From a virus (taxonomy: Duplodnaviria > Heunggongvirae > Uroviricota > Caudoviricetes): 64,000 nucleotides of DNA. Positions 1-55,057 of the stretch are shown here, piece after piece. Every line of letters starts with the position of its first letter. Position 1 is the first letter of the stretch. A model generated the notes under the pieces. The model ran no database searches. It was not told the DNA's origin and saw only the letters and a program-made list of their open reading frames with translations. The stretch is from the IMG/VR virus record IMGVR_UViG_3300042519_001716. One strand, given 5' to 3'. The position numbers and the translations under genes were made by a program.

Positions 1-42
1 TATTTTAAGCACGGCAGAGATACTGAAACCGCAGTATTCGCA

Positions 43-393: not shown

Positions 394-721
394 TAAAATA
401 ATAGTTGCAAGTTCAAGCACTCAATTGAACAATAGAATTAATGAAATGATTACTGAGGGGTGGGAGCAAATTGGCTCTCACTCAGTAGTGGTTGTTCACT
501 CACAAAATAGATATGCCGGCAGTCAGCATATGGATACTATTAATGAAACTGAATATTCAGTTACAATGCAGAAGGTTGCAGATAATACCATTAGTGTTGA
601 TATTGCATTCTATCACCCCGAAGGTGAAGATGGTAATGTAGATGAAACCAAAAAGATTTTTGATGAGGAGGGAATGCGTGAGGAATTTGAAAATAAATTA
701 GCTAACCTAATTAAACAATAA
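377..721 (+). CDS. hypothetical early protein
   Basis: ORF track; 17-nt overlap with upstream gene. Confidence 0.45.
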   Translation: MKMKINKIIVASSSTQLNNRINEMITEGWEQIGSHSVVVVHSQNRYAGSQHMDTINETEYSVTMQKVADNTISVDIAFYHPEGEDGNVDETKKIFDEEGMREEFENKLANLIKQ

Positions 722-725
722 TATT

Positions 726-1196
726 ATGGGAATGGATGTAATGGGTATGAATCCAATTAATAACGAAGGAGAAACCTTCCACGCGAACTTATGGTCTTGG
801 AGACCTATTCACTATTTGTGTGAGTATTTGTCAATGAAAAATAATCTCAATTTTGATACAAAGAATTGGGGTCATAATGATGGTGGTGGATTAAGAACTC
901 AAAAGGAGTGTAATGTGTTGGCTGATAAAATAGAGAGGTATCTTAAAGACCATCCTTTTCTTAAAGGTGATGATGATCGAATGTTTATCTGCTTGGATAT
1001 GTGGTGTGATACAAACACTAATCAATTTGTGAAACCACAAGGAATATCGGTTCAGTATCCTAATGGTACAATCTTATATTCAAGCGTTGTTACAAAATCT
1101 GGTGATGTGGTTCAGCCGGCTCACTCAATATCACTTGGACATTTAAAAAGATTTATTTCATTTCTAAAAGTTTGTGGAGGATTTGAGATATTCTAA
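726..1196 (+). CDS. hypothetical protein
   Basis: ORF track, 156 aa, tight spacing after previous stop. Confidence 0.5.
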   Translation: MGMDVMGMNPINNEGETFHANLWSWRPIHYLCEYLSMKNNLNFDTKNWGHNDGGGLRTQKECNVLADKIERYLKDHPFLKGDDDRMFICLDMWCDTNTNQFVKPQGISVQYPNGTILYSSVVTKSGDVVQPAHSISLGHLKRFISFLKVCGGFEIF

Positions 1197-1250
1197 TAAA
1201 TTATTTGTAGTTTTACAAAATAAATTACTAACCAATTAAATTTAATTCAA

Positions 1251-1586
1251 ATGGAAAATTTACACAATGTCGATTTAGAATTTGTAATGGAAACCGCTGA
1301 GGGTTGTTCAGCACTAAAACCCGATGGGTTTGATGGTAGTAAGGATGGCTATGATAGAGCCGTAATCGGTATAACTGATAATGGCCAGTTAGTCTATTCA
1401 AAGGAATGGATGGTGCGCTTATTACTGGAAATGGATTATAAGAGCATAATGGAGGCCGAAGATAAAACGGACTTAGAACCGATGACTGAGGAGGAGGCTT
1501 GGGAATTTTTAGAATTCAATTGTTTCTGCGCATATGTTGGAGAGCAAACCCCTATCTTTGTTAATACATACGAAACTTTTAAATAA
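1251..1586 (+). CDS. hypothetical protein
   Basis: ORF track, 111 aa. Confidence 0.5.
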   Translation: MENLHNVDLEFVMETAEGCSALKPDGFDGSKDGYDRAVIGITDNGQLVYSKEWMVRLLLEMDYKSIMEAEDKTDLEPMTEEEAWEFLEFNCFCAYVGEQTPIFVNTYETFK

Positions 1587-1615
1587 ATTTATTTCAAACT
1601 TAAATTAAATCAATT

Positions 1616-1993
1616 ATGTCTACAATTATTAAATTAACCTACACGCAAACGGGTAGAACCACATTAGTGAATTTAGAGCAAGTAACTACTGCATTTAGAA
1701 TTTTTGAAAAGACCACGCAGAAATATGCTACCCGTGTTAATTTCCAAAACGATTCATTTTCAATTGTGAATGAAGACCTTCAAACTATTAAGGAGTTAGG
1801 AGAGAAAGCACTATCGGGAGAATATCAATCTAATGATTGGTCGGAAGAAGATGCTGGTGGCGGAGAAGACCTACACGATAGACTTCGTGAAGACTACAAT
1901 AATAATATGGGTGGTGGTTATCAACAACGACCATATCAAAATCAAAGGAGAGGAAATTATAATAATAACTATAATACTAATCAAAGATGGTAG
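1616..1993 (+). CDS. hypothetical protein with G/Q/N/Y/R-rich low-complexity C-terminal tail
   Basis: C-terminus GGGYQQRPYQNQRRGNYNNNYNTNQRW resembles RGG/QN-rich nucleic-acid-binding tails. Confidence 0.5.
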   Translation: MSTIIKLTYTQTGRTTLVNLEQVTTAFRIFEKTTQKYATRVNFQNDSFSIVNEDLQTIKELGEKALSGEYQSNDWSEEDAGGGEDLHDRLREDYNNNMGGGYQQRPYQNQRRGNYNNNYNTNQRW

Positions 1994-2188
1994 AAATGAT
2001 AAAAGAATTATATCAAGGCTCAAAAGACCTTTGGTATAATGACAGAAAAGAATTCTGGGAGATGTATGGTTCATTCGCTTTGGTAGTATTCTGGTTCATA
2101 ATAACTTGGTTCGTATTACTTCCATTAGTCGAAGGACTTTAAAATAGATTTATTTTGTTTTGTTTTTTTGGTTTGGTGATTTGTTAAA

Positions 2189-2226
2189 GGGGTGGGACTT
2201 CCCCCAGTTCCACCTTCTTTTTGTTT
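2189..2226 (+). terminator. Rho-independent terminator candidate (GGTGG..CCACC stem then TTCTTTTTGTTT)
   Basis: GC-rich hairpin followed by T-run downstream of the 1616..1993 gene. Confidence 0.45.
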
Positions 2227-2255
2227 AACCTTCCAGTAGTAAAAATAAAACAAAT

Positions 2256-2645
2256 GTGCATATGTGGAAAAACTTCATTATCTTTGCGAAGTTATTCACA
2301 AAAAATAAAATTCGTATGACAACAAAAAACACAAACAACCTTCCAGTCATCAAGAGATCACTTGGTGGGTTGAAGAAGTTACTGGCGGAGGATTTGAAAA
2401 GTGAGAGACATAAAATTAGGTTTAAACGCTATGGTAGTAAATATGTCATCACTAATAGTAATAGTGATCTGACCAGTAAGTTAGAAAGATCATTTAACTC
2501 ATTTATGAGTAAACTATCTGTTCATTCAGATGGAAAAAAATTACGTGGAATATGCTTCGTCGATAAAAATTCTGATGACTTCAGCGTTGGTTATCAGAAG
2601 GAAGGTGAATTCGTATTACACCAAATAAAAGGAAAGCTGGGTTAG
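2256..2645 (+). CDS. hypothetical basic protein
   Basis: ORF track, 129 aa, K/R-rich. Confidence 0.5.
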   Translation: MHMWKNFIIFAKLFTKNKIRMTTKNTNNLPVIKRSLGGLKKLLAEDLKSERHKIRFKRYGSKYVITNSNSDLTSKLERSFNSFMSKLSVHSDGKKLRGICFVDKNSDDFSVGYQKEGEFVLHQIKGKLG

Positions 2646-2662
2646 TAAAGGTTAGTTATCCT

Positions 2663-2699
2663 GAAGACGGGTTAGTCGTTTCTCCCGTCTTCTTTTTTA
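2663..2699 (+). terminator. Rho-independent terminator (GAAGACGGG-loop-CCCGTCTTC then TTTTTTAT)
   Basis: perfect 9-bp inverted repeat followed by T-run immediately after the 2256..2645 gene. Confidence 0.7.
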
Positions 2700-2771
2700 T
2701 TAAAAATTATTACAAAAAAATTTGTCTGGGATTAAAATAAGTTTATATTTGCAAAACAAAATAATAATCAT

Positions 2772-3431
2772 ATGCCAAACTGGTGCTGGAACAACTTAAT
2801 TATTTCGCCTTCAGATTCAGATGAATCTGGTGAAGGTATCAAAAGACTTCGTGCTAAACTTATGTTTATGCTTGAAGATATGACTGCGAATCCAAAGGTA
2901 TGGGGTGGTTCGTATGACTATCTGGTGGGCAGAGAAAATGATTGGGATGAGATAGATGGCTGGTACGAACATAACCTTCGTGTTTATGGAAGTAAGTGGC
3001 AGAAGTCTGCTGAGGATTTTATCGAGGCGATGGAAGATGATGGCGAATGCATTACTATGGGATTTCAATCTGCTTGGTCGCCTGTTGTTGGATTTACTAA
3101 ATTACTATCAAACCAGTACAGGCTACATATCGAGCATACATATGATGAAACTGGTGACTGGTTCGCAGGAAAGTTGGTTGTTGATTCTGGGGTGGTACTG
3201 GAAGAATTCTGTTTGGATTATTATGCAGGGACATATAAAATTGATGCAGATTTATTCTGGCACGAAATAAGAAGCAATATGGAATGCTGGGTAGAAGATG
3301 ATGAAGATGAAGCCAGAAGCCAATACGCCTCCACGCTGAAGCAACTGGATTTCTTATCACCAGAAGAATTAAAGCAACTGGATGATGAATTCAATGAAGC
3401 ACTCACAGATTATCAAAACGAAAACAAATAA
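2772..3431 (+). CDS. hypothetical acidic protein
   Basis: ORF track, 219 aa, D/E-rich; GC-richer codon usage than flanking DNA. Confidence 0.55.
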   Translation: MPNWCWNNLIISPSDSDESGEGIKRLRAKLMFMLEDMTANPKVWGGSYDYLVGRENDWDEIDGWYEHNLRVYGSKWQKSAEDFIEAMEDDGECITMGFQSAWSPVVGFTKLLSNQYRLHIEHTYDETGDWFAGKLVVDSGVVLEEFCLDYYAGTYKIDADLFWHEIRSNMECWVEDDEDEARSQYASTLKQLDFLSPEELKQLDDEFNEALTDYQNENK

Positions 3432-3440
3432 AACTATATG
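3421..3440 (+). promoter_or_regulatory. conserved early-gene upstream motif AAATAAAACTATATG (includes start codon)
   Basis: one of 6 or more near-identical copies immediately 5' of + strand genes. Confidence 0.5.
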
Positions 3441-3698
3441 GAAAATTTAGAAAGAGATTCTAAGATTGCTAACTTCAATAAGAAGTTAAAAGACATTCTA
3501 ATTGAACTGGCTGTTAATGATGAGCTACCATTGGATATGACCACGCTGGACTCCAGCGTTTTCGATCCCTGTACTACTCCGCTGGTCGATGCCCTGATTA
3601 CACTACAGGAGGATGCTGAATGGGCGTTGGATGATAGATGGGATAGAAGTGATGATGGCTTCAAAGCACAGATTGAATTAATCAACAGCGTAATTTAA
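3438..3698 (+). CDS. hypothetical protein
   Basis: ORF track, preceded by conserved motif. Confidence 0.5.
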   Translation: MENLERDSKIANFNKKLKDILIELAVNDELPLDMTTLDSSVFDPCTTPLVDALITLQEDAEWALDDRWDRSDDGFKAQIELINSVI

Positions 3699-3712
3699 AA
3701 TAAAACTATATG
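3694..3712 (+). promoter_or_regulatory. conserved motif TTTAAAATAAAACTATATG
   Basis: exact copy of the motif family ending in the ATG of gene 3710. Confidence 0.5.
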
Positions 3713-3952
3713 GAATTTATACCAGCCAGCGAAACGGCACGCAAAGAAGTACTGGATTATGCCAGACAGCAGATCAGAGTCTATGGCATTGATGTGGATT
3801 TACTACCTGATGAGTACAGAATCTCGGACAACCCTGAAGAATTTATTAAGGAAGCTGAAGCTCAGGGATTAGTATGGAGTCTCAAGGGCTTCGAGCTTCA
3901 GACTAACAATGACCAGATAAACTTCAATAATATATTCATTAAAATAATTTAA
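3710..3952 (+). CDS. hypothetical protein
   Basis: ORF track, 80 aa. Confidence 0.5.
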   Translation: MEFIPASETARKEVLDYARQQIRVYGIDVDLLPDEYRISDNPEEFIKEAEAQGLVWSLKGFELQTNNDQINFNNIFIKII

Positions 3953-3954
3953 TC

Positions 3955-4170
3955 ATGTCAGAAGAATCAAAATACTTTTTAACGGAGGTGCAATTGCATC
4001 ATATCGAATCCAACAAATGGACAGCAAAACCTAATGGAGCTTATGTAGATTTGTATCCTGAAGATTTTACTGGTGACGCGTGGAATCAAATATGTCAACA
4101 GCTGGAGATTCCAGTTGAATCAGGGTCAGCAACAATATTATACTTTGGTGTTAAAAATGAAACAATATGA
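3955..4170 (+). CDS. hypothetical protein
   Basis: ORF track, 71 aa. Confidence 0.45.
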   Translation: MSEESKYFLTEVQLHHIESNKWTAKPNGAYVDLYPEDFTGDAWNQICQQLEIPVESGSATILYFGVKNETI

Positions 4171-4478
4171 AATATAGAATCAATCAACATGACGAAATGG
4201 AATTCGATGTAATCGTCGAAGATGGTGGCGTGGTATCTGTTTACCATAATGATGAAAATCAGGTTAGCACGTATTACCAAGATAGGCTCACAGAAGATAT
4301 GAGTCCTGATGAGATCTGGGAGACTCTAGGCGAGGGAAAAGCCTATATAAAGGATTGGCCTGAAGGGACTACTAGAGAAGAGATTATTAAGGACGCATTG
4401 AACTGGCTCGTATTACCTGAACCAGAAAGCTGGGAGCTAGATGAAACTATCTGGAGCAAATTTGAATTGAGCTGGTAA
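4167..4478 (+). CDS. hypothetical acidic protein
   Basis: ORF track, ATGA overlap with upstream gene. Confidence 0.5.
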   Translation: MKYRINQHDEMEFDVIVEDGGVVSVYHNDENQVSTYYQDRLTEDMSPDEIWETLGEGKAYIKDWPEGTTREEIIKDALNWLVLPEPESWELDETIWSKFELSW

Positions 4479-4543
4479 CAAAAAAAATATTTTGTTAATT
4501 AAATAATTTTATTTATCTTCGCATACACAAAAAATATATAGTC

Positions 4544-5329
4544 ATGCATAAAAAATTTCTGTTTATGAATTACAAGACAAAAGCCGACGCAAAGCGTATT
4601 ACAGGCTTGAGCTATCTAGGTGGGATCAACACTAGCTCAAAGATCGCAAAAGGACTCAAGTATGACGAGATGACCTACATCCTTTATCTGGCTCCTGCTA
4701 AATCTAGCGGCTACGAGGTTTGCCCTATGCGCAGCAAAGAATGCACAGCTGCCTGCTTAAATGAGAGCGGGCATAACAGAATCGATATTCATGATAATAC
4801 AATTAATAAGGCGCGTATTACCAAGACGAAGTTATTTTTTGAGAATCGTCCTTTCTTTATGGGCTGGCTTATCGATGAGATCAGAAGCGCGCAGCGTAAA
4901 GCAATTGCAGCTGGCAAGAACTTCAGCGTGCGCCTGAACGGTACTAGTGACTTAAGCCCTGAACAGTTTCACCTGGATGGCAAAAACATCCTGGAGCTGT
5001 TCCCAGATGTACAGTTCTATGATTATACTAAAGTCTTCAAGCGTATACAGCTCGCGAAAAAATACAGTAACTATGATTTGACTTTTAGCTTCAGCGGAAA
5101 TAATATTGCTGAGTCACTGTTGGCCCTTGAGCAGGAGATCAGAGTAGCTGTAGTATTTGAAGAGGTTCCTGCACAGTACTGGGGCGTCCAGGTCGTTGAC
5201 GGCGATGCATATGATATGAGATATCAAGATCCAGGGAAGGTCGTGATCGGCCTGAAGTATAAGAAGGTGAGAAATAAAATAGATTTATCTAAAAGTAAAT
5301 TTATTGTTGCCAAAGAAAATATTTTGTAA
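4544..5329 (+). CDS. hypothetical protein with Cys cluster (CPMRSKECTAACL)
   Basis: ORF track, 261 aa, GC-richer composition; no family recognised with certainty. Confidence 0.5.
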   Translation: MHKKFLFMNYKTKADAKRITGLSYLGGINTSSKIAKGLKYDEMTYILYLAPAKSSGYEVCPMRSKECTAACLNESGHNRIDIHDNTINKARITKTKLFFENRPFFMGWLIDEIRSAQRKAIAAGKNFSVRLNGTSDLSPEQFHLDGKNILELFPDVQFYDYTKVFKRIQLAKKYSNYDLTFSFSGNNIAESLLALEQEIRVAVVFEEVPAQYWGVQVVDGDAYDMRYQDPGKVVIGLKYKKVRNKIDLSKSKFIVAKENIL

Positions 5330-5352
5330 CATTGTAAAAAAAAAAACACACT

Positions 5353-5694
5353 ATGGATTATGTAATGGAAATTTCTAGAATGCGCGATACTCTCCATAAG
5401 GAGATTATCCTTACAATGATAACAGATAACCGTCTGGAGAAAGACGAATACCTGATAACATTTAATCGCCCAGTTGAGTGCACGGTAATATATTATAGGC
5501 CAACAATACATGAGGGCACTGAAAATGTTATTATAACTGGAATTGACGGCGTATCAAATGAATTGATGGCAGTTAACGAAGACCATAATGATCGTTTTGT
5601 TTTTTACAGCGATCTCAGGATGGAAGATCTAGCCCTGATTCATAGAATAGTAATGACAAAAAATTATACAATAAAACAATTTCAATTATGTTAG
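5353..5694 (+). CDS. hypothetical protein
   Basis: ORF track, 113 aa. Confidence 0.5.
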   Translation: MDYVMEISRMRDTLHKEIILTMITDNRLEKDEYLITFNRPVECTVIYYRPTIHEGTENVIITGIDGVSNELMAVNEDHNDRFVFYSDLRMEDLALIHRIVMTKNYTIKQFQLC

Positions 5695-6074
5695 AACAGC
5701 TATCAACGCTAGTGAGAAAGCCGAGTAAAATTGATGAGGCGGAGCTAGATAAAATCGGATGGACATCCAGGCGCAATAAGGTCCTGGATTATATGGATCG
5801 GGACCAGGTATTACAAAGGCTCCTGGCGGATTTTAAAATCGTTAATGATCACCTAAAGCAGATAAGATCTACCAGGGATGTAAAGATCTATTATACAGAA
5901 CTTGAAAAAGCTGGCACGTACTACACGTACGCCAGATGCATCTTCAATGTTAACGGTAAGCAAACAGAATTCAGGAAGTACCTGGGAAAGAGCGACGATT
6001 TAAAACCAGGTGACATTGACGAAGACTTTTTAAAACAAATCTTTTTAAAGAAGTTAAAAAATTTCTTGGTATAA
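5688..6074 (+). CDS. hypothetical protein
   Basis: ORF track, 128 aa, 7-nt overlap. Confidence 0.5.
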   Translation: MLEQLSTLVRKPSKIDEAELDKIGWTSRRNKVLDYMDRDQVLQRLLADFKIVNDHLKQIRSTRDVKIYYTELEKAGTYYTYARCIFNVNGKQTEFRKYLGKSDDLKPGDIDEDFLKQIFLKKLKNFLV

Positions 6075-6115
6075 TCAACCAGGTTTATTACTTTTACAAT
6101 CTAATCTAAAAAACA

Positions 6116-6325
6116 ATGGAACCATATAAAGTAAAAGCAAATGAAGAATTTTTTACCAATGTTATCCATGTACTACGCGAAGGCGGCGTATGGGGTTGGC
6201 CTGATGCGGCGGTCCTGTTTACGAAGCGTGGAGATAAATTAATTGGTAATGAAATCGCAAACAGGGAAGCAAAGAAAATTGTTAGCGAAGAATTTTTTAA
6301 CAAGCACTTTGAAGTTTTAAAATAA
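6116..6325 (+). CDS. hypothetical protein
   Basis: ORF track, 69 aa. Confidence 0.45.
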   Translation: MEPYKVKANEEFFTNVIHVLREGGVWGWPDAAVLFTKRGDKLIGNEIANREAKKIVSEEFFNKHFEVLK

Positions 6326-6334
6326 AACTATATG
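6315..6334 (+). promoter_or_regulatory. conserved motif TTTTAAAATAAAACTATATG
   Basis: motif copy ending in ATG of gene 6332. Confidence 0.5.
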
Positions 6335-6730
6335 AAATCAATTAAAGTTAGATTTAACCTGGCAGCCGGTAAGAATTATATGACCTGGAAGATTGACATT
6401 CCAGGACAGCCGGCTAGGTATGTAAACCCGGATGCTGTACAGCTGCGTATGACGGGCTGCACAATTAAGAACCAGAAATCAACAGCTAGCAAGATTCACC
6501 AGGGCGCGCACAAAAGCGTATGTGCCTGGATTCTCTGCAACGAGATCAGCATCCTGGCAGATCTGGATGGGCCAAGTATTACACAGCTAAAAAATTATGA
6601 GCAGCTGTCATATAATCCCCGCGTGCAGCCCAACTGGTTATGCGGGGGACAGAATGTGGACAATGAATCGTATGACAACATTGTTAGTATGGGGAAAACT
6701 TTATTTGTGGAATTAAAAAACATTTCTTAA
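6332..6730 (+). CDS. hypothetical protein
   Basis: ORF track, 132 aa. Confidence 0.5.
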   Translation: MKSIKVRFNLAAGKNYMTWKIDIPGQPARYVNPDAVQLRMTGCTIKNQKSTASKIHQGAHKSVCAWILCNEISILADLDGPSITQLKNYEQLSYNPRVQPNWLCGGQNVDNESYDNIVSMGKTLFVELKNIS

Positions 6731-6751
6731 TATTACAAAAAAAATAAAACA

Positions 6752-7018
6752 ATGGAAAAAGTAGCAAAGTACAAAGCGGCTGCGCAAAGATGGGCAGCAA
6801 GATGGAAAGTTGAGGAGCAACACGCAATAGATGTTGCAGCATCAATATTGATGACTCGTGATAAAGTTATGATGGGCGGTAGCTTCGCTCAAGCGATTGT
6901 AGATAATAATCTGCGTGAAGCTATTAACCGAGCGGATGATACTTGTATCAAGTATTTAAAGTTCTTCAGCATCATCAACTATAACTGTGGTAGTTATGAA
7001 ATCGAAAACGGACAATAA
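6752..7018 (+). CDS. hypothetical protein
   Basis: ORF track, 88 aa. Confidence 0.5.
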   Translation: MEKVAKYKAAAQRWAARWKVEEQHAIDVAASILMTRDKVMMGGSFAQAIVDNNLREAINRADDTCIKYLKFFSIINYNCGSYEIENGQ

Positions 7019-7019
7019 G

Positions 7020-7193
7020 ATGACTAAGAATCAAATCGAACAAAAGATTGGGGAGTTGAAATCATTAAAGCTCCCACAATTAAATAAGCGAAGCAAAGCT
7101 CACCACGACTGGAAGCTGGAGATGGAGAAGCTAACTAGTTTACTGGATGGAGAAATTAATAAGATGAATAACCTTTTAAATAAAACTATATGA
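7020..7193 (+). CDS. hypothetical small coiled-coil protein (start moved to internal ATG right after upstream stop)
   Basis: track ORF 6987..7193 begins at a GTG inside the upstream gene; ATG at 7020 lies 1 nt after the upstream TAA. Confidence 0.4.
   Translation: MTKNQIEQKIGELKSLKLPQLNKRSKAHHDWKLEMEKLTSLLDGEINKMNNLLNKTI
7174..7192 (+). promoter_or_regulatory. conserved motif TTTTAAATAAAACTATATG
   Basis: motif copy ending in ATG of gene 7190. Confidence 0.5.
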
Positions 7194-7417
7194 AAGCTCT
7201 AACAAAAGGAGAACTAATGGATTTCTGGGTGAAGTATGCATATGACAAGCGAGGTGTATGGGACAACGACCCAAGCAAACCCCTGCGCACAGATACTTGG
7301 TGCGATTATCTTTATGATAACTACTGGGAGATTATGCGATTGCAGGGACTCACCAGAAACGATGTCTTCTACGGGATGAGATTCCCAATCAACAGATTTA
7401 AAAAGAATTTAAAATAG
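7190..7417 (+). CDS. hypothetical protein
   Basis: ORF track, 75 aa. Confidence 0.5.
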   Translation: MKALTKGELMDFWVKYAYDKRGVWDNDPSKPLRTDTWCDYLYDNYWEIMRLQGLTRNDVFYGMRFPINRFKKNLK

Positions 7418-7423
7418 ATTTAT

Positions 7424-7741
7424 ATGAAAGCTATATTCATTGATGCAAAAAATCGTCAGGTATCCATTATTGAGAATAAGGGACAGCTGGAAGACAAATA
7501 CTTAATCCTGAAGGTCGACATGGTGGAGATTGGTTTTTACTGGGAGAATGGAGATACTCTATGGGTTGATGAGGAAGGATTAATTAACGGAACCGATTAT
7601 GGATTTCAACTGGAAGGTAGAGAGTTCATGGGCAACGGCTTAATCTACGGGACTAATGTTGAGAACCCTGAATTATGTGATTCCGCCGTTACTCCATTAA
7701 AAGATATCAAAATTAAATTCTTCACCTTAATACCAGCATAA
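7424..7741 (+). CDS. hypothetical protein
   Basis: ORF track, 105 aa, preceded by motif variant TTTAAAATAGATTTATATG. Confidence 0.5.
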   Translation: MKAIFIDAKNRQVSIIENKGQLEDKYLILKVDMVEIGFYWENGDTLWVDEEGLINGTDYGFQLEGREFMGNGLIYGTNVENPELCDSAVTPLKDIKIKFFTLIPA

Positions 7742-8157
7742 TGGCAACACCACTTATACACGCACAGTCCTCTGTCAAGAAATGGAGAGGATGTACAGAC
7801 GACTATGTATCCATCCATGCCAAGATGGATTGCAGCAAGAAGTATTTTCCTGATAACAGGCACAGGCTGCTAACGCATAATATGTTCTTTATCTTTGAGG
7901 TAATCATTCCCCTGTATGGTGAATATATAGTTAACTCGGATGGTAGAAGCGTAAGCGTTAAAGATATCTGCGAGCTTCACATCCTGGAGGATTATCATAT
8001 GAAGTATATCCCGACGCCGCAAGACTGGCTGGAAAACTTGCAGCTCAAGCCCTGGATGAATAACGGCCTGGGAGAAGCACCATCATCCGCCAAGCTACGC
8101 TTCCCAGATGGAATAGTTAGAACAGAAACAAAAACAGTTAGAGAATATATTGATTAA
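7741..8157 (+). CDS. hypothetical protein
   Basis: ORF track, 138 aa. Confidence 0.5.
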   Translation: MATPLIHAQSSVKKWRGCTDDYVSIHAKMDCSKKYFPDNRHRLLTHNMFFIFEVIIPLYGEYIVNSDGRSVSVKDICELHILEDYHMKYIPTPQDWLENLQLKPWMNNGLGEAPSSAKLRFPDGIVRTETKTVREYID

Positions 8158-8175
8158 CCCATAAACCTTATTATT

Positions 8176-8628
8176 ATGTCTGAAATAAAAAAAACAAAAA
8201 GAGAAACAATCGCTCAACTAGCAGAAAAGTTCCCTGGTGTCGCCACATTTGAAGTCGCTTATCAGGGCGCAGGTGATAACTTTGATTCATTCTTTGATTT
8301 CATAATGAAAGATTCAGCAGGTAATGAAATTGAATCATCACAAACTGATGAGGATAGTTTTTTAACCATTGCTGATGATTACATATGGCACATATTTGAC
8401 AAAGCGCAGAGCCAGCCAGATTTTAATAACGACGGCTCGGAAGGTAAAGTTATCTTTGATATGATAAACAAAGTTGTTATCCTGGAAGTAACCTACCTGG
8501 AAGATGTAACCCCAGATTATGACGGTGATGAAGACGACCCAGACTATGATGAGAAGCGTGATGAGTACTGGGATAATATGGATGAAAGGGACTGGGAATA
8601 TCATGTCCAGAAGCCTGAAGAATTCTAA
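8176..8628 (+). CDS. hypothetical strongly acidic protein (DNA-mimic / Ocr-like candidate)
   Basis: 150 aa with dense D/E runs (DYDGDEDDPDYDEKRDEYWDNMDERDWEY); early-region location. Confidence 0.5.
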   Translation: MSEIKKTKRETIAQLAEKFPGVATFEVAYQGAGDNFDSFFDFIMKDSAGNEIESSQTDEDSFLTIADDYIWHIFDKAQSQPDFNNDGSEGKVIFDMINKVVILEVTYLEDVTPDYDGDEDDPDYDEKRDEYWDNMDERDWEYHVQKPEEF

Positions 8629-8645
8629 TCCGCCAGTCGGGCTAG

Positions 8646-8690
8646 CTCCCGCTTGTGCTGCAAGCTTGCGCAGCGGGATCACACTTTTTA
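8646..8690 (+). terminator. Rho-independent terminator candidate (CCCGCT..AGCGGG hairpin with internal GCAAGCTTGC palindrome, then CTTTTTAAT)
   Basis: GC-rich inverted repeat plus T-run directly after the 8176..8628 gene. Confidence 0.5.
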
Positions 8691-8692
8691 AT

Positions 8693-8715
8693 CTTAAATA
8701 AAACTATTTCAAATG
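8693..8715 (+). promoter_or_regulatory. motif variant CTTAAATAAAACTATTTCAAATG
   Basis: variant of the conserved upstream motif, ends in ATG of gene 8713. Confidence 0.4.
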
Positions 8716-8967
8716 GAAGATAGATCATTTAGAGTTGTATGGGAGATCGATGTAGATGCTCCTGATGCAAGGACAGCTGCTGTCCAAGCACATGACAGTG
8801 TCATCAACGGGCTAGCTTCAGTATACGAAATTCATGAGTGGGACCAGCCGGATATGATTACCGCAACCCCGGTTGCGATGATTGATGTGAAGGAACCGGA
8901 TGCCGATCTACCGGTCCCAGACAGAAGGATCTTTAACGAAAACTACATGGGCCCCACAATTATTTAA
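8713..8967 (+). CDS. hypothetical protein
   Basis: ORF track, 84 aa. Confidence 0.5.
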   Translation: MEDRSFRVVWEIDVDAPDARTAAVQAHDSVINGLASVYEIHEWDQPDMITATPVAMIDVKEPDADLPVPDRRIFNENYMGPTII

Positions 8968-8979
8968 GGGACCTAATCA

Positions 8980-8998
8980 TTTAAAATAAAACTATATG
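8980..8998 (+). promoter_or_regulatory. conserved motif TTTAAAATAAAACTATATG
   Basis: exact motif copy ending in ATG of gene 8996. Confidence 0.5.
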
Positions 8999-9184
8999 AA
9001 TCCTCAAATCTTAAAGCTATGGATAGAGTCAAGAAGATCTCATGTCCAGTATTGTCAAGCAATTGGTATTAAATTTACCGAACAAGAAGCTAACGCCATC
9101 CTCAGCATCCTGAACGAACTGGAAGAAGACTTCAACCTGGAGCTATACGCAAAGGAAGAATATCAATTCCAAAATAATTTTTGA
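8996..9184 (+). CDS. hypothetical protein
   Basis: ORF track, 62 aa. Confidence 0.45.
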   Translation: MNPQILKLWIESRRSHVQYCQAIGIKFTEQEANAILSILNELEEDFNLELYAKEEYQFQNNF

Positions 9185-9230
9185 TTTTAAGAAAATATTC
9201 TTAACTTCACTAAAATAAAAAAACACTCGT

Positions 9231-9788
9231 ATGACAGAAGTTATTAACCTATCAAGCAATGTTATTGTTAGCGACCCTTGCTACAGTAGACCAACCTGGT
9301 GCCAAACAGTACTAACAGATGTATTACCTGGAAGATATATTTCCCAGGTGAATGAAGATCCTGAAACCGACAGGTGTGCTGAGCTACTCGTCATACACGA
9401 GGATTATTACCAGAAGCATCTAGACTATGTCGATCATTCAAGCTGCGGGGTTGACAGTGGGCAGCTGGGGATCTTTGATGCCGCGTCATACAGAAACGAT
9501 GCTGCAGCTGCAGGTATCTCAACGCCGCGTATTAAATTCTCTGTTGCAGGTGATTACCAGGACGGTGACGCCTGGTATGAAAAGATGTGTAAGATCACCT
9601 TGGGTGAGCCACTTCGGTATGGAGCGTATGACACAGGTGTGGTTTCCTCAAGCGGATGGGGAGATGGAATGTACCCGCTGCAGGTGGCCAGAAATGATGG
9701 CGGCCAGATTGTTGGAATGCTGGTAACATTCATTGACCTTGAGGACGAAGATGAGGATGACTTCCTGATGGACGATGATGAAGATTAA
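9231..9788 (+). CDS. hypothetical protein with acidic C-terminal tail (DLEDEDEDDFLMDDDED)
   Basis: ORF track, 185 aa. Confidence 0.5.
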   Translation: MTEVINLSSNVIVSDPCYSRPTWCQTVLTDVLPGRYISQVNEDPETDRCAELLVIHEDYYQKHLDYVDHSSCGVDSGQLGIFDAASYRNDAAAAGISTPRIKFSVAGDYQDGDAWYEKMCKITLGEPLRYGAYDTGVVSSSGWGDGMYPLQVARNDGGQIVGMLVTFIDLEDEDEDDFLMDDDED

Positions 9789-9872
9789 ATAAAACTATTT
9801 CAAAATATATTTGCCCCAGATTTTTTTGTTCCAGTTTTTTTCCTTATATTTTATTATAAATTAATAAATGAT

Positions 9873-10055
9873 ATGAAAAAAACAAAAGCAACTCAGTCCC
9901 AGCCCCTGACCTATTCGTCAGTGGCACCAAACATTTACTTCGACGGTACTAGTTACCGTGTAAGAATGATTCTAAACGGAGAGCGCTACAGCAAGAACTT
10001 AACTTCTAAGCGTGCTGCAGTAATGTACCGTAACTCACTTCTTAAGACAGCTTAA
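9873..10055 (+). CDS. small basic protein, possible arm-type/AP2-like DNA-binding domain
   Basis: IYFDGTSYRVRMILNGERYSKNLTSKRAAVMYRNSL resembles integrase N-terminal DNA-binding folds; weak. Confidence 0.35.
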   Translation: MKKTKATQSQPLTYSSVAPNIYFDGTSYRVRMILNGERYSKNLTSKRAAVMYRNSLLKTA

Positions 10056-10081
10056 TAAGCTTCCTGGTATAGGTTTGTTCA

Positions 10082-10117
10082 AAAGGGGACCTGAGGAATC
10101 GGATCCCCTTTTTTTAA
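10082..10117 (+). terminator. Rho-independent terminator (AAAAGGGGA..TCCCCTTTTTTT)
   Basis: inverted repeat plus T-run directly after the 9873..10055 gene. Confidence 0.7.
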
Positions 10118-10129
10118 TATTTATATAAC

Positions 10130-10858
10130 ATGAGAGAACAAAACGAACCAACAAAACTATCCATTACCGGCAAGACGCTAGCGGGACTAGCCGGCCAGGT
10201 ATTCAAAGATGGCCCATATGAATATAGAATATACGTGAAGACCGGCGAGCTTGGAGACTCGACAATCGTATCCATATCCATCTTCATCGAGAACACTCCT
10301 CCGCATGTAGGTGTGGACCTGTACCTAATGGCCCTAAAACGTGTGGCCGAAGTGGCCGGCGATCACATAGAAAATTCAGAATGGATGATCAATAAGGTAA
10401 TCATAGAACAATATGAAGCCCTGGGTGAAATGACCCCAATGGTCACCGGACAAAGATCAAACATATTCGGGCTCCAATCATATAGAAGCCTCGAAGAGAA
10501 AATTAGAACCAATCTAACAAAATCAATTAACTTTCAACAAGTAAACGATATTATAGATGTTAGAAAAAGAAAGCTAACCAAGGTTCTTAACTATATGCAG
10601 AAAACACTACCAACATATAAGCAACCTCTTAACATAACTTACACCATATCTGGTGAAGTAAAAAGACACAACGAAGAAATCCTGGCTCCAAGTATTAAAG
10701 CAGATATCAATGTCACCATGGTAGAAAAACCAAAAGCAAGCGATCACACCGCAAGAGTAATTATAGACGCTATAAAAGATAGTATATATGAAATGATAGA
10801 AGATCTATCACCCATAGACATCCACTCGTATGACAACATTACAATAAAAGTATCATAA
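10130..10858 (+). CDS. hypothetical protein
   Basis: ORF track, 242 aa, GC-richer composition. Confidence 0.55.
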   Translation: MREQNEPTKLSITGKTLAGLAGQVFKDGPYEYRIYVKTGELGDSTIVSISIFIENTPPHVGVDLYLMALKRVAEVAGDHIENSEWMINKVIIEQYEALGEMTPMVTGQRSNIFGLQSYRSLEEKIRTNLTKSINFQQVNDIIDVRKRKLTKVLNYMQKTLPTYKQPLNITYTISGEVKRHNEEILAPSIKADINVTMVEKPKASDHTARVIIDAIKDSIYEMIEDLSPIDIHSYDNITIKVS

Positions 10859-10866
10859 GATGCTCG

Positions 10867-11151
10867 GACCAGTACCATACTGGTCCTCGCCGTATGACGC
10901 CCAGACTAACCCTCTGGGTTTTTTTATGCGTCTATCTTATGACCGCGTATGACTGGCCCACTGTATGACGGTCCAGCAGCGAGCCGGTCAGTATAGTACT
11001 GACTGGCGAGCATTCTAAATAAAACTATTTTAAAATTGCGTATGACACGCCAGGACATATATGCTCGCCCAGTACCATACTGGGCTCGTCCTGCGGAGCC
11101 GTATGACATCCCCTTATTTATGCACAATATATCCCCTCTTTTATGCACAAT
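10867..11151. repeat. noncoding iteron/inverted-repeat cluster: five GTATGAC boxes, three CAGTA-N3-TACTG palindromes, 2x ATCCCCTYWTTTATGCACAAT direct repeat
   Basis: GTATGAC at 10892, 10947, 10963, 11040, 11101; palindromes at 10867-10886, 10984-11006, 11067-11085; direct repeats at 11108-11128 and 11131-11151; only shadow ORFs present. Confidence 0.6.
10900..10927 (+). terminator. Rho-independent terminator (CCCAGA-loop-TCTGGG then TTTTTTTAT)
   Basis: 6-bp stem plus 7-T run after the last + strand early gene. Confidence 0.6.
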
Positions 11152-11350
11152 TAAATCGGCCCGTAATACACCGGACGCGCGCAAGCAGGCGAGCCCTCGA
11201 TCCCCTTTATGGGAGAGGGCGAGATCATATAAAACTGTTTAAATTCCAAATTATTTTTTTTGTGGGTCGTGAGTCACACAAGGTACACTTCCTGGAGAGT
11301 TCCCACTTATCCCCATTTTCTCCCACTTTTTGCGATTGTAATACAGCTAG

Positions 11351-11376
11351 CCAAAAAAAGTGCCCCTAGTGGGGCT
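11351..11376 (-). terminator. Rho-independent terminator on - strand (GCCCC-ACTA-GGGGC then TTTTTTT)
   Basis: stem-loop plus T-run read on the reverse strand, downstream of the leftward HNH gene. Confidence 0.5.
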
Positions 11377-11542
11377 TGTATCGCTATAAAATCAGCTACG
11401 ATGGAATCAGTACCTAAAATGGCAGTATTATACACATATATTTGCATAAATATGGACTTTTTGGCATGTTTCTATTGTGCAGATTTTAGACCATTTATTG
11501 TGCCAAATCCGGAAGTAAAAACGCGCCAAACCAGGAAGTTAG

Positions 11543-11596
11543 TGTTCACAAAATACTGTTGTTCACGGATCGTGAACAGAGAACAAACGTGAACAT
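11543..11596. promoter_or_regulatory. operator-like nested dyad: TGTTCACA-N9-TGTTCACG-GAT-CGTGAACA-N10-CGTGAACA
   Basis: perfect 8-3-8 palindrome at 11560-11578 flanked by two further half-sites in mirrored orientation. Confidence 0.5.
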
Positions 11597-11640
11597 ATAG
11601 GGCTCGCAATCTCTCGATTGCTCGCTGCGAAGCAGGTAGT

Positions 11641-11674
11641 ATGATCGCCCCTTCGCATAAAGTGCTTAGGGGCT
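11641..11674 (-). repeat. 34-bp copy (31/34 identical) of the start region of the LpxH-like gene at 23398-23432; forms a hairpin enclosing an ATG
   Basis: ATGATCGCCCCTTCGCATAAAGTGCTTAGGGGCT versus ATGATCGCCCTTTCGCATAAAGTGCTCAAGGGCT; two of the three differences are compensatory in a 6-bp stem. Confidence 0.6.
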
Positions 11675-11685
11675 TTAACAATATA

Positions 11686-12225
11686 CTATATAAATTTAAA
11701 GATATAACCTTTAAATGATTTTACATCTCCCCTTAAAACCTTTCTAATTCTTTGACTATTTTTTCTTAAAGCAACATTTTTAAGATCGGGGTAAAAATAC
11801 CTTGTAGCTTCATTTACTGAATTAAAGGTTTTTGTTTCATTTGTTTTTTTATTAACCATAAGGACAGGTTTATCGAGTCTACCTAAAGAAACCCCAACAG
11901 TATCGATATAGTGTTTAATATTCTCATCTCCTGTGACCCATTCAAGATTCTCTATTCGATTATCATTTTTAATCAAATTAATATGATTTACTTCTGGTTT
12001 ATTTTCTGTATTAGGAATAAATGCAGTTGCAATTAATCTATGTATAAAATGTCTTTTTCTTTTATAACCATTTTGCAACGTAACATTAATATAACCTTTA
12101 TTTGTTTTTAATGGTGTGAGTAATCTATTTCTATGTTTAGAATATACCTCACCATTCATACTTACAAAATAAACTCCGTCATATCCAGGAATTTCTTTCC
12201 ATATTGATTCATTACTTAAATCCAT
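11686..12225 (-). CDS. HNH homing endonuclease with AP2-type DNA-binding region
   Basis: NGEVYSKHRNRLL..GYINVTL..HRLIATAFIPN..VNHINLIKNDNRIENLEW; typical free-standing phage HNH. Confidence 0.75.
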   Translation of the reverse strand: MDLSNESIWKEIPGYDGVYFVSMNGEVYSKHRNRLLTPLKTNKGYINVTLQNGYKRKRHFIHRLIATAFIPNTENKPEVNHINLIKNDNRIENLEWVTGDENIKHYIDTVGVSLGRLDKPVLMVNKKTNETKTFNSVNEATRYFYPDLKNVALRKNSQRIRKVLRGDVKSFKGYIFKFI

Positions 12226-12517
12226 TATTTTTCTTTTTTACAGGTTTTCTGGTGGCTTTCCTTAATTCTTGTACCGACTCATAAACCATTTGATGTTTTA
12301 TGTTATAATGTTCTATCTTGTGACAGGTTTCGCATAGGGTATATAAAGCTTTATTATCATATTCCCATGGCATTCTACCTTTGATATAATATCCATGATG
12401 TACATGTAGAATCTTATTATTTCTTTTACACCCCCGACATGTGAATTTATCCTTCCGTTTTACCTCATAGGCTTTAGCTTTCCATCTAGGGTCTTGTAGG
12501 AGTTCCTTATAAACCAT
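12212..12517 (-). CDS. HNH endonuclease (zinc-finger HNH)
   Basis: CRGC..HVHHGYYIKG..CETCH motif pattern. Confidence 0.55.
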   Translation of the reverse strand: MVYKELLQDPRWKAKAYEVKRKDKFTCRGCKRNNKILHVHHGYYIKGRMPWEYDNKALYTLCETCHKIEHYNIKHQMVYESVQELRKATRKPVKKKNNGFK

Positions 12518-15679: not shown

Positions 15680-17818
15680 TTATATTAATTTTTTTGGTTG
15701 ATAATCAAAGTCAATTGGTTTATGGTTTTTGTTTCCCCAGTATCCATTTCCTTCCCATTGGTATTGGAAGCTAAGGTCTAGTTCTGAGTTAAGTCTTCTT
15801 TCTTCTGCCATTAACATATCAAATTCTTCATGTGATCTACCATTTTCTCCCCAGATTGGTTTTGCGTGTACTCTTGCTCGTACGGCCGCGTTTACCTTTA
15901 TATGAGAAAAATCTACGGTTTTAAATGGCGTTTGTTTTTCAATATTAGATTCCGGTTGTTTAAAATTAAAATCACATTTATATTTCCAGTTTCCATCTCT
16001 ATCTATAATAAACTTATGGTTGGCCCAGAATGGCCCCACGTTTCTTTCTCCGAATTCAACCAGATCCAATTGTTGATCAAACTTTATATCCAATGAGAAT
16101 CCACCTCTGGTTCTCCATAACATTCTGAATAGTACAAACATTTCATTTACCAGAGTATTTGCAAATGGGTGCATGTTTGGTTGTATAATCCGGTAGTCAA
16201 ACTGCTCGTATTCAATTTCATTTAATGTGGATCGATCAAAAATGTTTAATACATAGTGATCTCTTATTAGGTTTGGTCTATGTGGAACATGTACATGATT
16301 AATGGTTACTAAGTTTTGTAAGAATATGGCAAATGATTTGATTCTACATAGCACGTGTATCTTTGTTAACCTAAAGTCTTTGGTCATCCATTGATCCATG
16401 AAGAAGTGTGGTGATACCCCATATCTATCAGGATTTTGACCAACCACCGTATTCATCCCCATACCGAATCCAAATCCCGCAGCTATTGTTAATATGTTTT
16501 GATTTCTATTTCTCCATATGAATGTTAGCGTGTCCGAGAAGTCTTGGTAGTCTTCAGTTGGGAATCCAACAATCCAATTGGTAAACGCGCTTATACCGAC
16601 AATCCTTCCAGATTCCATGTTCTGTTCCATCTCCAGTATGGTTACGCCCTTGGCCATATCATTCAATACTTTCTGGCTTCCCGATTCAATTCCATAGTTA
16701 AGTGCCTCACAACCAGAACCCCTTAGATCCCAATAGAAATCCAGATCCATTCTTCCATCACATCTACAATACCCGGTCCAATGTAATTTTATATCCTTTG
16801 CGATGATGGCCTTGCAGAACGCCCTTAGTTCAGAAAGATTTCCATTTACCAAGCTATCAATAAACCATACAACATCCGTACCTTTGCTATAATATAAATG
16901 TTCAATCTCCGCTAGTGCATCTGTGGCCATCCTTTGTCTATACTTCCAGAAGTGTGTCTCCTCACAGAATGTACATTTGGCAACACAACCTCTGCTGAAC
17001 TCGGTATTGATTCCATTTGGATAAACATATTCATTAAAATCAAAATCGCTGTAGTCAGGTAGCGGAAGATTATTTAAATCCAACCTTTGCTTTTCTGGTT
17101 GTGATAGTATTTGAATTTCATTATGCACAACACCATTCTCCACCTCATCTAATATCTGTAACAATATGGCTTCGCCCTCACCAATGACAGAGTAATCAAT
17201 TAAACCTTTTGGATAGTCATCTTTAAATTGATGTATTCTTAATACCGCATTGGGACCGCCGATAGCGATCTTAATGTTTGGCATAAGTCTTTTTAATTCG
17301 GTGGCCACCCATTTAACTGGCTCCTCATTGCAATAGTACATGGTAAACCCAACCACATCCGGCTTCCAATCAACAATCTGTTGGATATACTGTCGAAGCA
17401 CCGGCTCAATATGCGGATGCAACTCCGTATAATATGTTTTCTCTAACCATTTCCATTCCTTTGCCCCATCCCATGGATCAAAATCAATCTTATTTTCTCT
17501 AATTAATTCTCTAAAAACATTATGTATCTTTATATTTAAATCCAAGCATTTGGTTTCATATCCGGAATGCTTTGCAACGGAAGCCAATCTCGCCGTGTTG
17601 AATGGTGGGAAATTTGGGGACCACTCCGGTAATAACATTAAAAACAATCTTGTTTTCTTTGTTGCTGGAATGATATCAATGGTGGTTAGATTACCTTGCA
17701 CCTTGTTCTTTGCAAAGGGAGCAATCGCTTCCATCATCGCCACATGTTTGTCCTCCGAATCTGGGGTTTTTATTCTTGGCTTGGCCTCGTCTTTTTTGAA
17801 ATTATATAAATCGCTCAT
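15680..17818 (-). CDS. B12-binding-domain radical SAM enzyme with ~300-aa C-terminal extension of unknown function
   Basis: Rossmann-like B12-binding region (VVGFTMYY..IKIAIGGPNA) followed by CVAKCTFCEE (CxxxCxxC) radical SAM motif; 712 aa. Confidence 0.75.
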   Translation of the reverse strand: MSDLYNFKKDEAKPRIKTPDSEDKHVAMMEAIAPFAKNKVQGNLTTIDIIPATKKTRLFLMLLPEWSPNFPPFNTARLASVAKHSGYETKCLDLNIKIHNVFRELIRENKIDFDPWDGAKEWKWLEKTYYTELHPHIEPVLRQYIQQIVDWKPDVVGFTMYYCNEEPVKWVATELKRLMPNIKIAIGGPNAVLRIHQFKDDYPKGLIDYSVIGEGEAILLQILDEVENGVVHNEIQILSQPEKQRLDLNNLPLPDYSDFDFNEYVYPNGINTEFSRGCVAKCTFCEETHFWKYRQRMATDALAEIEHLYYSKGTDVVWFIDSLVNGNLSELRAFCKAIIAKDIKLHWTGYCRCDGRMDLDFYWDLRGSGCEALNYGIESGSQKVLNDMAKGVTILEMEQNMESGRIVGISAFTNWIVGFPTEDYQDFSDTLTFIWRNRNQNILTIAAGFGFGMGMNTVVGQNPDRYGVSPHFFMDQWMTKDFRLTKIHVLCRIKSFAIFLQNLVTINHVHVPHRPNLIRDHYVLNIFDRSTLNEIEYEQFDYRIIQPNMHPFANTLVNEMFVLFRMLWRTRGGFSLDIKFDQQLDLVEFGERNVGPFWANHKFIIDRDGNWKYKCDFNFKQPESNIEKQTPFKTVDFSHIKVNAAVRARVHAKPIWGENGRSHEEFDMLMAEERRLNSELDLSFQYQWEGNGYWGNKNHKPIDFDYQPKKLI

Positions 17819-55056: not shown

Positions 55057-55057
55057 T

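Follow-up and report, generated by a model that had tools for sequence, protein, structure and literature searches.

The DNA analysed here (64,000 nucleotides of the IMG/VR record IMGVR_UViG_3300042519_001716, Caudoviricetes; hereafter the window) carries genes that point to a large uncultured phage, one of a freshwater giant-phage family. A block of small genes on the + strand, which closes with a gene for a 242-aa protein, meets a block of genes on the − strand at a non-coding element of about 0.8 kb (10859-11685). The element holds an oriented array of a short word, GTATGAC, together with hairpins of alternating orientation and an invariant core, and a gene for a 60-aa protein, the candidate reader of the word, lies upstream of the array (Table 1). 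A DNA element working through a bound protein at the border of the small-gene block is well supported; the readings of what such a complex might do there are weighed below.

A repeat-rich element between two convergent gene blocks

The initial annotation, made from the letters alone, had singled out about 400 bp (10860-11260) as a noncoding cluster of iterons and palindromes. The repeats lie where it had placed them: three inverted repeats are built on CAGTA-N3-TACTG (GGACCAGTACCATACTGGTCC at 10866-10886, CCGGTCAGTATAGTACTGACTGG at 10984-11006 and GCCCAGTACCATACTGGGC at 11067-11085), and ATCCCCTYWTTTATGCACAAT forms a tandem pair (11108-11128 and 11131-11151). GTATGAC does occur five times within 10892-11107, every copy on the + strand, and a sixth copy, at 10828, falls within the last codons of the 242-aa gene. 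This is far beyond chance, dinucleotide shuffles giving an expectation of 0.01 copies for 10859-11260 and of 0.05 for 10859-11685, and none of 500 shuffles reaching five. The GC content of 10860-11260 is likewise above that of the flanks, as had been noted (47.6%, with 33.3% and 27.0% in the adjacent stretches of 400 bp), and the terminator expected at the end of the early operon is found there. The flagged span has no conserved reading frame, as claimed, but the element is about twice as long, and its most conserved part, the core, lies outside that span.

Table 1. Parts of the element and the two genes to its left, in window coordinates
Feature	Position	Strand	Description
60-aa gene	9873-10055	+	Modelled fold of AP2/integrase-arm type; candidate binder of YGTATGAC sites
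242-aa gene	10130-10858	+	Lineage-specific insert, separating 60-aa gene from array; one site (10828-10834)
A1 element	10862-10890	+	GCTCG, hairpin with CCA loop, CTCGC
Array of five YGTATGAC sites	10892, 10947, 10963, 11040, 11101	+	Within 10892-11107; TTATGAC variant at 10937
Intrinsic terminator of the + strand block	10899-10925	+	Directly after the first array site
B1 element	10979-11011	−	A-type reversed: GCGAGC, hairpin, GCGAGC
AT-rich block	11012-11039	+	TCTAAATAAAACTATTTTAAA; in all lineages, including distant ones
A2 element	11063-11088	+	GCTCG, hairpin, CTCG
Two 21-bp direct repeats	11108-11151	+	Each with the DnaA-box consensus TTATGCACA (11118 and 11141; 23 bp apart)
Degenerate reversed site	11163-11169	−	GTAATAC in the window; GTCATAC in most relatives
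B2 element	11189-11223	−	GC-rich hairpin with CTTTATG loop, GCGAG flanks
AT-rich tract	11224-11262		About 87% A+T; composition conserved in relatives, sequence not
Invariant core	11263-11345		Palindrome GTGAGTCAC (11269-11277); phased repeats; GATTGTAATACA (11334-11345)
Intrinsic terminator	11353-11375	−	Faces the + strand terminator
Conserved right-hand segment	11376-11601		TACGAT at 11397; ATATTT/AAATAT inverted repeat; GCCAAA-N4-GAAGT direct repeats
A3 element and hairpin	11602-11673	+	A3 (11602-11625), then GTAGTATGATC, then GC-rich hairpin with CATAAAG loop (11647-11673)

No DNA relative of the region was found by blastn against 50,697 phage records, nor any relative of the 242-aa neighbour among deposited phages by tblastn, and IMG/VR scans with the 242-aa protein and with the core pattern gave no match. 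Another IMG/VR scan, with the 15-mer palindrome CCAGTACCATACTGG, returned 65 single matches, none of them related by blastn, which we take as chance. Exact copies of the 242-aa protein occur in several freshwater metagenomes, at loci that are at least 99.8% identical, and its homologues are found on contigs reaching 255 and 312 kb. A 19-nt pattern drawn from the invariant core matched 45 loci in JGI metagenomes, 35 of which are true relatives, widely divergent; two more distant lineages were found through the 60-aa protein. The metagenomic loci or lineages compared with the window carry L-numbers (L071, L073, L075 and so on). The positional conservation that the initial annotation had proposed to look for is present, the architecture being kept in the 35 JGI relatives as well as in distant lineages, among them lineages from ENA. 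The core is the most conserved segment across 31 aligned relatives. The region as a whole is 78-88% identical to that of L073, against 60-64% for the 242-aa gene and 80-94% for the other genes of the block; it is therefore constrained about like the conserved genes of the block, and not more. The statement that the region is far more conserved than its flanking genes is true only against the 242-aa gene. Comparison of the sequences thus indicates that the element is under purifying selection across a deep family.

The hairpins make up much of the left half. The flanks of B1 are complementary to those of A1, so that larger inverted repeats enclose the smaller ones. Twenty versions of GCTCG-stem-loop-CTCG are found across the lineages, with stems that are unrelated in sequence yet complementary and with conserved flanks; moreover, compensatory double changes occur in the stems of A1 (CAGTA/TACTG to CACTA/TAGTG in L075), A2 (C-G to G-C in L075; alignment columns 304/320) and B2. 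Because the 20 variants keep complementary stems between conserved flanks, the comparative evidence indicates that the hairpins are real structures. At two stem positions of B1, G-C and G-U pairs alternate when the + strand is read (alignment columns 203/221 and 206/218), a weak hint that this is the strand that folds. In the left half both strands fold equally well (z of about −5.6 each), as expected of palindromic DNA. The terminators are kept in a similar manner: that of the + strand has another stem in L100 (GTCCC/GGGAC, followed by a T-run, at the same position), and that of the − strand keeps its stem in L071 and L073 while the loop varies. The core is built otherwise, with phased repeats of the TYCCCAC type exactly 10 bp apart (TTCCCAC at 11300, TCCCCAT at 11310 and CTCCCAC at 11320). 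On the right, the layout of 11602-11673 resembles the order of A1, site and terminator, and 11640-11662 is an inverted copy of the right half of B2.

Several further observations concern the parts of the element. The distant L075 has a copy of the 27-nt hairpin of 11647-11673 with 100% identity, at a different position (12027-12054 of that locus). An insert of the window lineage, at 11535-11593 and absent from L071, L073 and L080, contains a 19-bp palindrome centred on GATC, TGTTCACGGATCGTGAACA (11560-11578). In some distant lineages the non-coding region carries five to six copies of TGTCCCA, which resembles the phased repeats of the core (2100-2210 in L082; left of the array in L122 and L094). 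The motif of the AT-rich block, TCTAAATAAAACTATTTTAAA, also makes stop/start junctions in the + strand block, where the junction motif is TAAATAAAACTAT(ATG). Of the 15 window copies of ATAAAACT, nine fall within the first 11.3 kb (3428, 3700, 6322, 7180, 8698, 8986, 9789, 11019 and 11229), each of them on the + strand, and two of these are in the non-coding region, where no gene follows.

Could the region encode a small protein or an RNA that is conserved in relatives? Such a finding, which the initial annotation had named as one that would speak against its proposal, was not made. The small coding genes that might be drawn in the region (open reading frames, ORFs, of 30, 68 and 102 aa) were rejected, as they are not kept in relatives; no reading frame is conserved, because the lengths of the indels between relatives are not divisible by three, although the DNA motifs persist. 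The core was also rejected as a structured RNA, since no consensus fold emerges from it (alifold energies of −2.0 and −5.5 kcal/mol for the two strands). Searches of Rfam 15 at gathering score gave no match in the whole window, and permissive searches of the region gave only sub-threshold, chance-like matches (23.7 and 18.8 bits, where 155 and 56 are required). A scan for sigma-70-type promoters showed no excess, with 11 matches against 9.5 in shuffles. One orthologous position is inverted between lineages, reading GTATGAC in L075 and GTCATAC in others. The frame-shifting indels, the lack of an Rfam match and of a core fold, the bidirectional hairpins and the inverted site argue for a function at the level of DNA rather than of a coding sequence or an RNA.

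GTATGAC in the upstream block and its candidate reader

The array is the dense end of a wider distribution. GTATGAC occurs 15 times in the window, always within 1-11107 and 13 times on the + strand. The genes of the + strand block hold eight copies on the + strand and two on the − strand, where 0.61 and 0.33 are expected, and the word is about 13-fold enriched across the upstream block; the remaining 52 kb or so of the window hold none, against about five expected, and none of 200 shuffles gives zero. A similar density of the motif elsewhere in the genome would, according to the initial annotation, have counted against a specialised site. The outcome is divided, the word being abundant throughout the upstream block and missing from the rest of the window, and this combination points to a function that covers the block rather than to a purely local site. 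Among 19 loci, which are partly homologous and hence not independent, there are about 0.4-1.6 copies of the word per kb on the left side of the core and none, on either strand, in 155 kb on the right. Relatives carry three to eight + strand copies within 700 bp left of the core. The consensus across lineages is YGTATGAC (C precedes the word at 39 of 50 sites), and in distant lineages GTATTAC, GTAATAC and GTAAGAC are used as well.

The copies inside genes, which lie up to 8.5 kb from the array, are found at orthologous positions between lineages. They are spelled TAT-GAC after a rare codon, which is TCG, GCG, CCG or ACG: the residue before Tyr-Asp varies (Ser, Pro, Thr or Ala), while CG is without exception the end of its codon and GAC the codon for Asp, in a block where GAC makes up 27% of the Asp codons and TCG 8% of the Ser codons. 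Because rare codons are conserved while the residue varies, the codon evidence indicates that the in-gene copies are kept by selection on the nucleotide sequence. Two copies, at 2314 and 9229, overlap start codons conserved in relatives. The second belongs to the DUF4241 gene (9231-9788), which carries four copies in the order + − − + (9229, 9390, 9485 and 9626), the first overlapping its start codon; most of these sites, a reversed copy among them, recur in relatives. This gene lies just upstream of the 60-aa gene, and its sites could serve autoregulation.

Of the lineages checked whose sequence reaches far enough to the left, all but L082 have the 60-aa gene upstream of the array, and homologues of the gene hold this position even in the most distant lineages, at 41-47% identity. 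The family counts about 97 clusters, nearly all of them stand-alone proteins of 50-115 aa. Neither the 60-aa protein nor 10 distant members of the family have a match in Pfam, no PHROG family was found, and a profile search of PDB sequences gave no match. A confident AlphaFold2 model made with 30 homologues (predicted local distance difference test, pLDDT, of 86) shows four strands followed by a helix. In this predicted structure a three-stranded antiparallel sheet lies on a C-terminal helix, as in AP2 and integrase-arm-type domains, and 3jtz, 3rmp_C and 1bb8 are among the best structural matches. The Foldseek ranking agrees (3jtz, 3rmp_C, AP2), at values that are not significant (E of at least 0.35), and AP2 and integrase-arm domains outrank double-stranded RNA (dsRNA)-binding domains in both fold searches. 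Distant members of the family show weak matches to the dsRNA-binding motif (E of 0.036 to 0.71). By its synteny and modelled fold, the 60-aa protein would fit as the reader of the YGTATGAC sites. The 242-aa neighbour was also considered as an initiator or binder and is unsupported in that role, since many lineages lack it and its fold, which is not a Rep fold, gives no information.

The strand bias of the sites could also mean that the word is read in RNA, as GUAUGAC in early transcripts, by an RNA-binding regulator or nuclease for which RegA and RegB of T4 would be the analogues, the non-coding RNA then serving as a decoy or giving rise to small RNAs derived from a 3' untranslated region (UTR). 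We consider this very unlikely. It would account for the 13 of 15 copies on the sense strand of the + strand block, for the two that overlap conserved start codons and for the absence of the motif from all other genes; the first array copy lies between a hairpin and a terminator, in the 3' UTR, B1 keeps its G-U pairs only when read on the + strand, and the distant members of the 60-aa family match the dsRNA-binding motif, if weakly. However, four of the five array copies are downstream of the well-conserved terminator, with no promoter evident. Moreover, the hairpin elements occur equally in both orientations and the two strands fold alike, as palindromic DNA would; the GTAAGAC, GTATTAC and GTAATAC variants of distant lineages lack an AUG; one site is inverted at an orthologous position; and neither the Rfam searches nor the ranking of AP2 and integrase-arm folds above dsRNA-binding domains favours an RNA.

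The two convergent terminators suggest a still plainer account, in which the region is an ordinary convergent junction with bidirectional terminators, mRNA-stabilising hairpins, REP/BIME-like repeats and a conserved target of the neighbouring homing endonucleases, and GTATGAC has no role of its own. GC-rich hairpins in alternating orientation do resemble bacterial BIME mosaics, and two HNH endonuclease genes (11686-12517, on the − strand) lie directly to the right of the region, their presence varying between relatives (they are absent from L071 and L073). Yet this account is barely credible, since it leaves unexplained why the motif is oriented, enriched in the block, selected at the level of codons and absent elsewhere, and it accounts neither for an invariant core that is not a hairpin nor for the conserved synteny of the 60-aa gene.

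A proposed protein-bound boundary and the competing readings

The reading we lean towards, still tentatively, is that of a conserved cis-acting DNA element that acts via a bound protein, forms the 3' boundary of a small early-type gene block and serves as a polar barrier or insulator. A monomer of the 60-aa protein would bind each asymmetric 8-mer; a nucleoprotein complex would then form on the dense array at the end of the block, and the scattered sites would extend it over the block. As a polar barrier or insulator, such a complex may keep transcription or replication forks from passing from the early block into the remaining genome or back, and it may also shut the early block off. Intrinsic terminators of the + and − strands converge on the region, and the cumulative GC skew of the window, which here also follows gene orientation, has its maximum at about 10 kb and its minimum at about 51-52 kb, giving terminus polarity at the element. 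A polar barrier appears the most likely function because the sites are oriented and placed where transcription and GC skew converge; it is also preferred because back-up copies run through the block and the motif has been purged elsewhere, as harmful ectopic barriers would be. Altogether, a barrier, insulator or shut-off device is somewhat more likely than an origin.

Polar barrier sites of this kind are known from the Tus/Ter and RTP/Ter systems in bacteria and from TTF-I and its Sal-box downstream of rRNA genes. These systems share with the element short asymmetric sites and a reader of the monomer type (here a candidate), a single orientation on each side with the innermost cluster backed up by sites further out, and a position where transcription and GC skew converge; copies at ectopic places would do harm, in keeping with the avoidance of the motif elsewhere in the window. 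The element has no homology to Tus, RTP or TTF-I and is not a member of any of these systems; its sites are of 8 bp, against 18-23 bp in the polar barrier systems, and form one orientation set instead of an opposed pair.

Several observations weigh against a barrier read by the 60-aa protein. The sites have essentially one orientation, while a fork trap would normally have two opposed sets. An origin would better account for the AT-rich tract, the phased repeats and the enrichment of DnaA boxes, and the sense-strand bias and the start-codon sites also fit a motif read in RNA. L082 has no 60-aa gene at the expected place but keeps the array, as GTAAGAC and GTATTAC variants; and no clean link was seen between variants of the protein and variants of the site across lineages.

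The initial annotation had proposed that a site-specific protein binds the cluster, as a replication origin or as a packaging or partition site. What stands of this is a cis-acting repeat cluster of the protein-bound kind, given the purifying selection, the lack of an Rfam match and the adjacent candidate gene. Packaging or partition gained nothing from the gene content: no terminase, ParA, ParM, TubZ or integrase gene is found among the window ORFs scanned, and no partition NTPase gene among the genes flanking the element in the window or in relatives.

An origin is less likely than a barrier, but a real possibility. The oriented repeats would be iterons, the AT-rich tract at 11224-11262 the unwinding element, and the core with its phased repeats the place where the machinery is loaded, with the assistance of the host DnaA in some lineages. 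The five to six YGTATGAC sites on the + strand of 10828-11107 are oriented direct repeats, as an iteron origin would have, and so are the three to eight of the relatives; two conserved AT-rich blocks, the 10-bp phasing, the nested inverted repeats, an adjacent gene of DNA-binding type (by its predicted fold) and terminators on both sides, which would shield the central zone from incoming transcription, are all in keeping with this. There is also a precedent in oriE of T4, where 12-nt direct repeats lie next to small early genes (PMC3016281). The DnaA-box consensus is about sixfold enriched in the non-coding regions of 16 lineages (1.06 per kb, against a background of 0.16-0.19). However, each lineage has zero to three boxes, seven of the 16 have none, and the positions are not conserved. 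The segment that holds the two boxes of the window (11108-11151) is lineage-variable, with other sequence in L073, L080 and L078, and L075 has TTATCCACA twice, elsewhere in the region; these are the two lineages in which boxes are paired, in both cases 23 bp apart from start to start.

Further points against an origin come from its surroundings. Transcription converges on the element, and forks from an origin at a convergent junction would fire head-on into both blocks. The cumulative GC skew, which the initial annotation had proposed to compute, has a maximum here and not a minimum. At the divergent junction of about 51.5 kb, considered as an alternative origin, there are no repeats. The array sites are of only 7-8 bp and irregularly spaced (16, 55, 61 and 77 bp), and selection also maintains them within genes as far as 8.5 kb off, where iterons need no copies. 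Known Rep initiators are much larger than the 60-aa protein, which is not Rep-like, and no helicase, primase or Rep gene adjoins the element. Iteron origins such as those of plasmid Rep systems, the lambda ori and T4 oriE resemble the element in having direct repeats beside AT-rich DNA, a small early gene and, in some members, DnaA boxes; they differ from it in that the repeats here are shorter, irregular, not tandem and extended into genes kilobases away, at a convergent junction with terminus-type skew and with no Rep-like protein.

The restriction of the motif to one side of the core recalls a different kind of boundary, the T5 type of entry stop. By analogy, the small-gene block would enter the cell first, possibly as part of a long terminal repeat, and the region would halt the transfer or mark the boundary of the repeat, a packaging site or a terminus. 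We judge this unlikely. The architecture matches Davison's account of the T5 injection stop (bioRxiv 10.1101/866236). The iss region of T5 is untranslated, lies at the end of small early genes and is better conserved than many ORFs; it contains nested direct repeats, inverted repeats and palindromes, as well as eight DnaA or DnaA-like boxes (among them TTATGCACA), with conserved pairs 3 bp apart, and an HNH gene is inserted nearby (bioRxiv 10.1101/866236). The element shares with this untranslated repeat region 3 of T5 a conserved untranslated stretch of about 1 kb with "nesting-doll" repeats after early genes, TTATGCACA boxes, an HNH gene close by and a conservation above that of many neighbouring ORFs. 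The genes of the block have, in addition, an anti-defence flavour (DUF3846, DUF6915, DUF1281_C, GP88 and DUF4241). The region and the 242-aa protein are, however, without relatives among deposited phages; Pfam and PHROG scans of the window ORFs recognised no homologue of A1, A2 or dmp, and the largest gene of the small-gene block, of 261 aa, is not of the size of A1; no terminase gene is nearby; and the DnaA boxes, unlike those of T5, are paired 23 rather than 3 bp apart and lost in about half of the lineages. Conversely, an oriented, block-confined 8-mer with an adjacent AP2-fold gene has not been described for T5.

The ends of related contigs bear on the same question. Fourteen of about 39 end within about 300 bp of the core (L074, L078, L088, L091, L092, L096, L097, L101, L108, L114 and L118 are loci with such ends; window 11268-11286), many independent contigs among them within about 130 bp: relative to the core the ends include +19 (twice), +36, +78 and +133 as well as −11, −20, −91, −100 and −121, and the contig of 312 kb ends at +272. 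This would suit a genome end or an entry stop, but the ends are scattered from −170 to +310, contigs from the two sides overlap and other contigs cross the region unbroken. The ends could be either real DNA ends or breaks in the assembly graph, the latter because the core is identical among co-occurring strains.

A reading that joins elements of a barrier and of an entry stop would make the word a marker of a genome domain: a stand-alone protein of AP2 fold would read an oriented 8-mer present only in the first-expressed block of about 12 kb and purged from about 250 kb, and array and core would bring about a polar stop. This stop would be a pause in DNA entry of the T5 kind, in a lineage that is unrelated to T5, or else a phage-encoded barrier resembling Ter that sets the early block apart from the remaining genome. 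The marked block would perhaps also be the first to enter the cell. As a whole, this proposal seems to us rather unlikely.

The predicted fold of the 60-aa protein also invites comparison with the arm-type sites of attP in lambda, P4 and HPI, as it is the fold of the N-terminal domain of the integrases. There too, the few hundred bp around a core hold several short, oriented sites. In contrast to the integrases, the 60-aa protein is stand-alone and has no recombinase catalytic domain, and, as said, the ORFs scanned include no integrase; the core palindrome, GTGA-n-TCAC, lacks the layout of a recombinase core (arms of 11-13 bp and an overlap of 6-8 bp).

Genomic setting and significance

The protein families of the + strand block include, besides a GP88-family protein and the DUF3846, DUF6915, DUF1281_C and DUF4241 proteins, a DUF4314 protein. 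The − strand block encodes HNH endonucleases, a B12-radical-SAM protein, ArdC-like (ArdC-N/M78) and PcfJ-like proteins, RNase T-like exonucleases and a thymidylate-synthase-like enzyme. The gene content (1-10858, 27658-28902 and 46193-48094 of the window; L071-L080) resembles anti-defence sets or the leading regions of plasmids, and relatives have Tad3. The B12-binding radical-SAM protein (15680-17818, − strand) is of 712 aa, and the protein of the thymidylate-synthase family (49338-50501, − strand) is of 387 aa, about 120 aa beyond the length of the Pfam model; the two may relate to DNA base modification. A block on the + strand (52451-60954) carries two glycosyltransferase genes and a gene for a UDP-galactopyranose mutase (58766-59851) with about 60% identity to glf of Streptococcus and gut phages. 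ARAGORN places a putative tRNA-Arg(CCG) at 63391-63481 on the − strand; it has an unusual length, 91 nt, and overlaps the start of the ORF at 62474-63475.

At the other end, position 1 of the window was rejected as a genome end, as it falls inside a gene. The first ORF (window 1-42) is the N-terminally cut homologue of a 143-aa gene of L077 (346-777), and an independent contig of 1.1 kb, L126 (1-30), begins 13 nt further in than the window. The + strand block extends further left in relatives, and its far boundary is outside the window.

To our knowledge, almost no cis-acting DNA signals of giant phages, be they origins, ends or boundaries, have been described, and we know of none in uncultured lineages. 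Nor do we know of a parallel for the combination found here, that is, an oriented, block-confined 8-mer, a stand-alone gene for a protein of predicted AP2 fold, alternating hairpins with conserved flanks and an invariant core. A literature search for GTATGAC returned primer sequences only. The element offers a testable case: its short word is oriented, a 60-aa protein is the candidate to read it, the genome shows a sharp border there, and the more than 35 variants found in nature amount to a mutational series. Should it prove to be an origin, it would be the first origin candidate for this phage family. If, instead, a polar barrier or an entry stop is at work, the puzzle of the DNA-transfer stop of T5 would be extended to an unrelated group, where it is open to comparison, and large phages would be seen to partition their chromosome into functionally marked domains.

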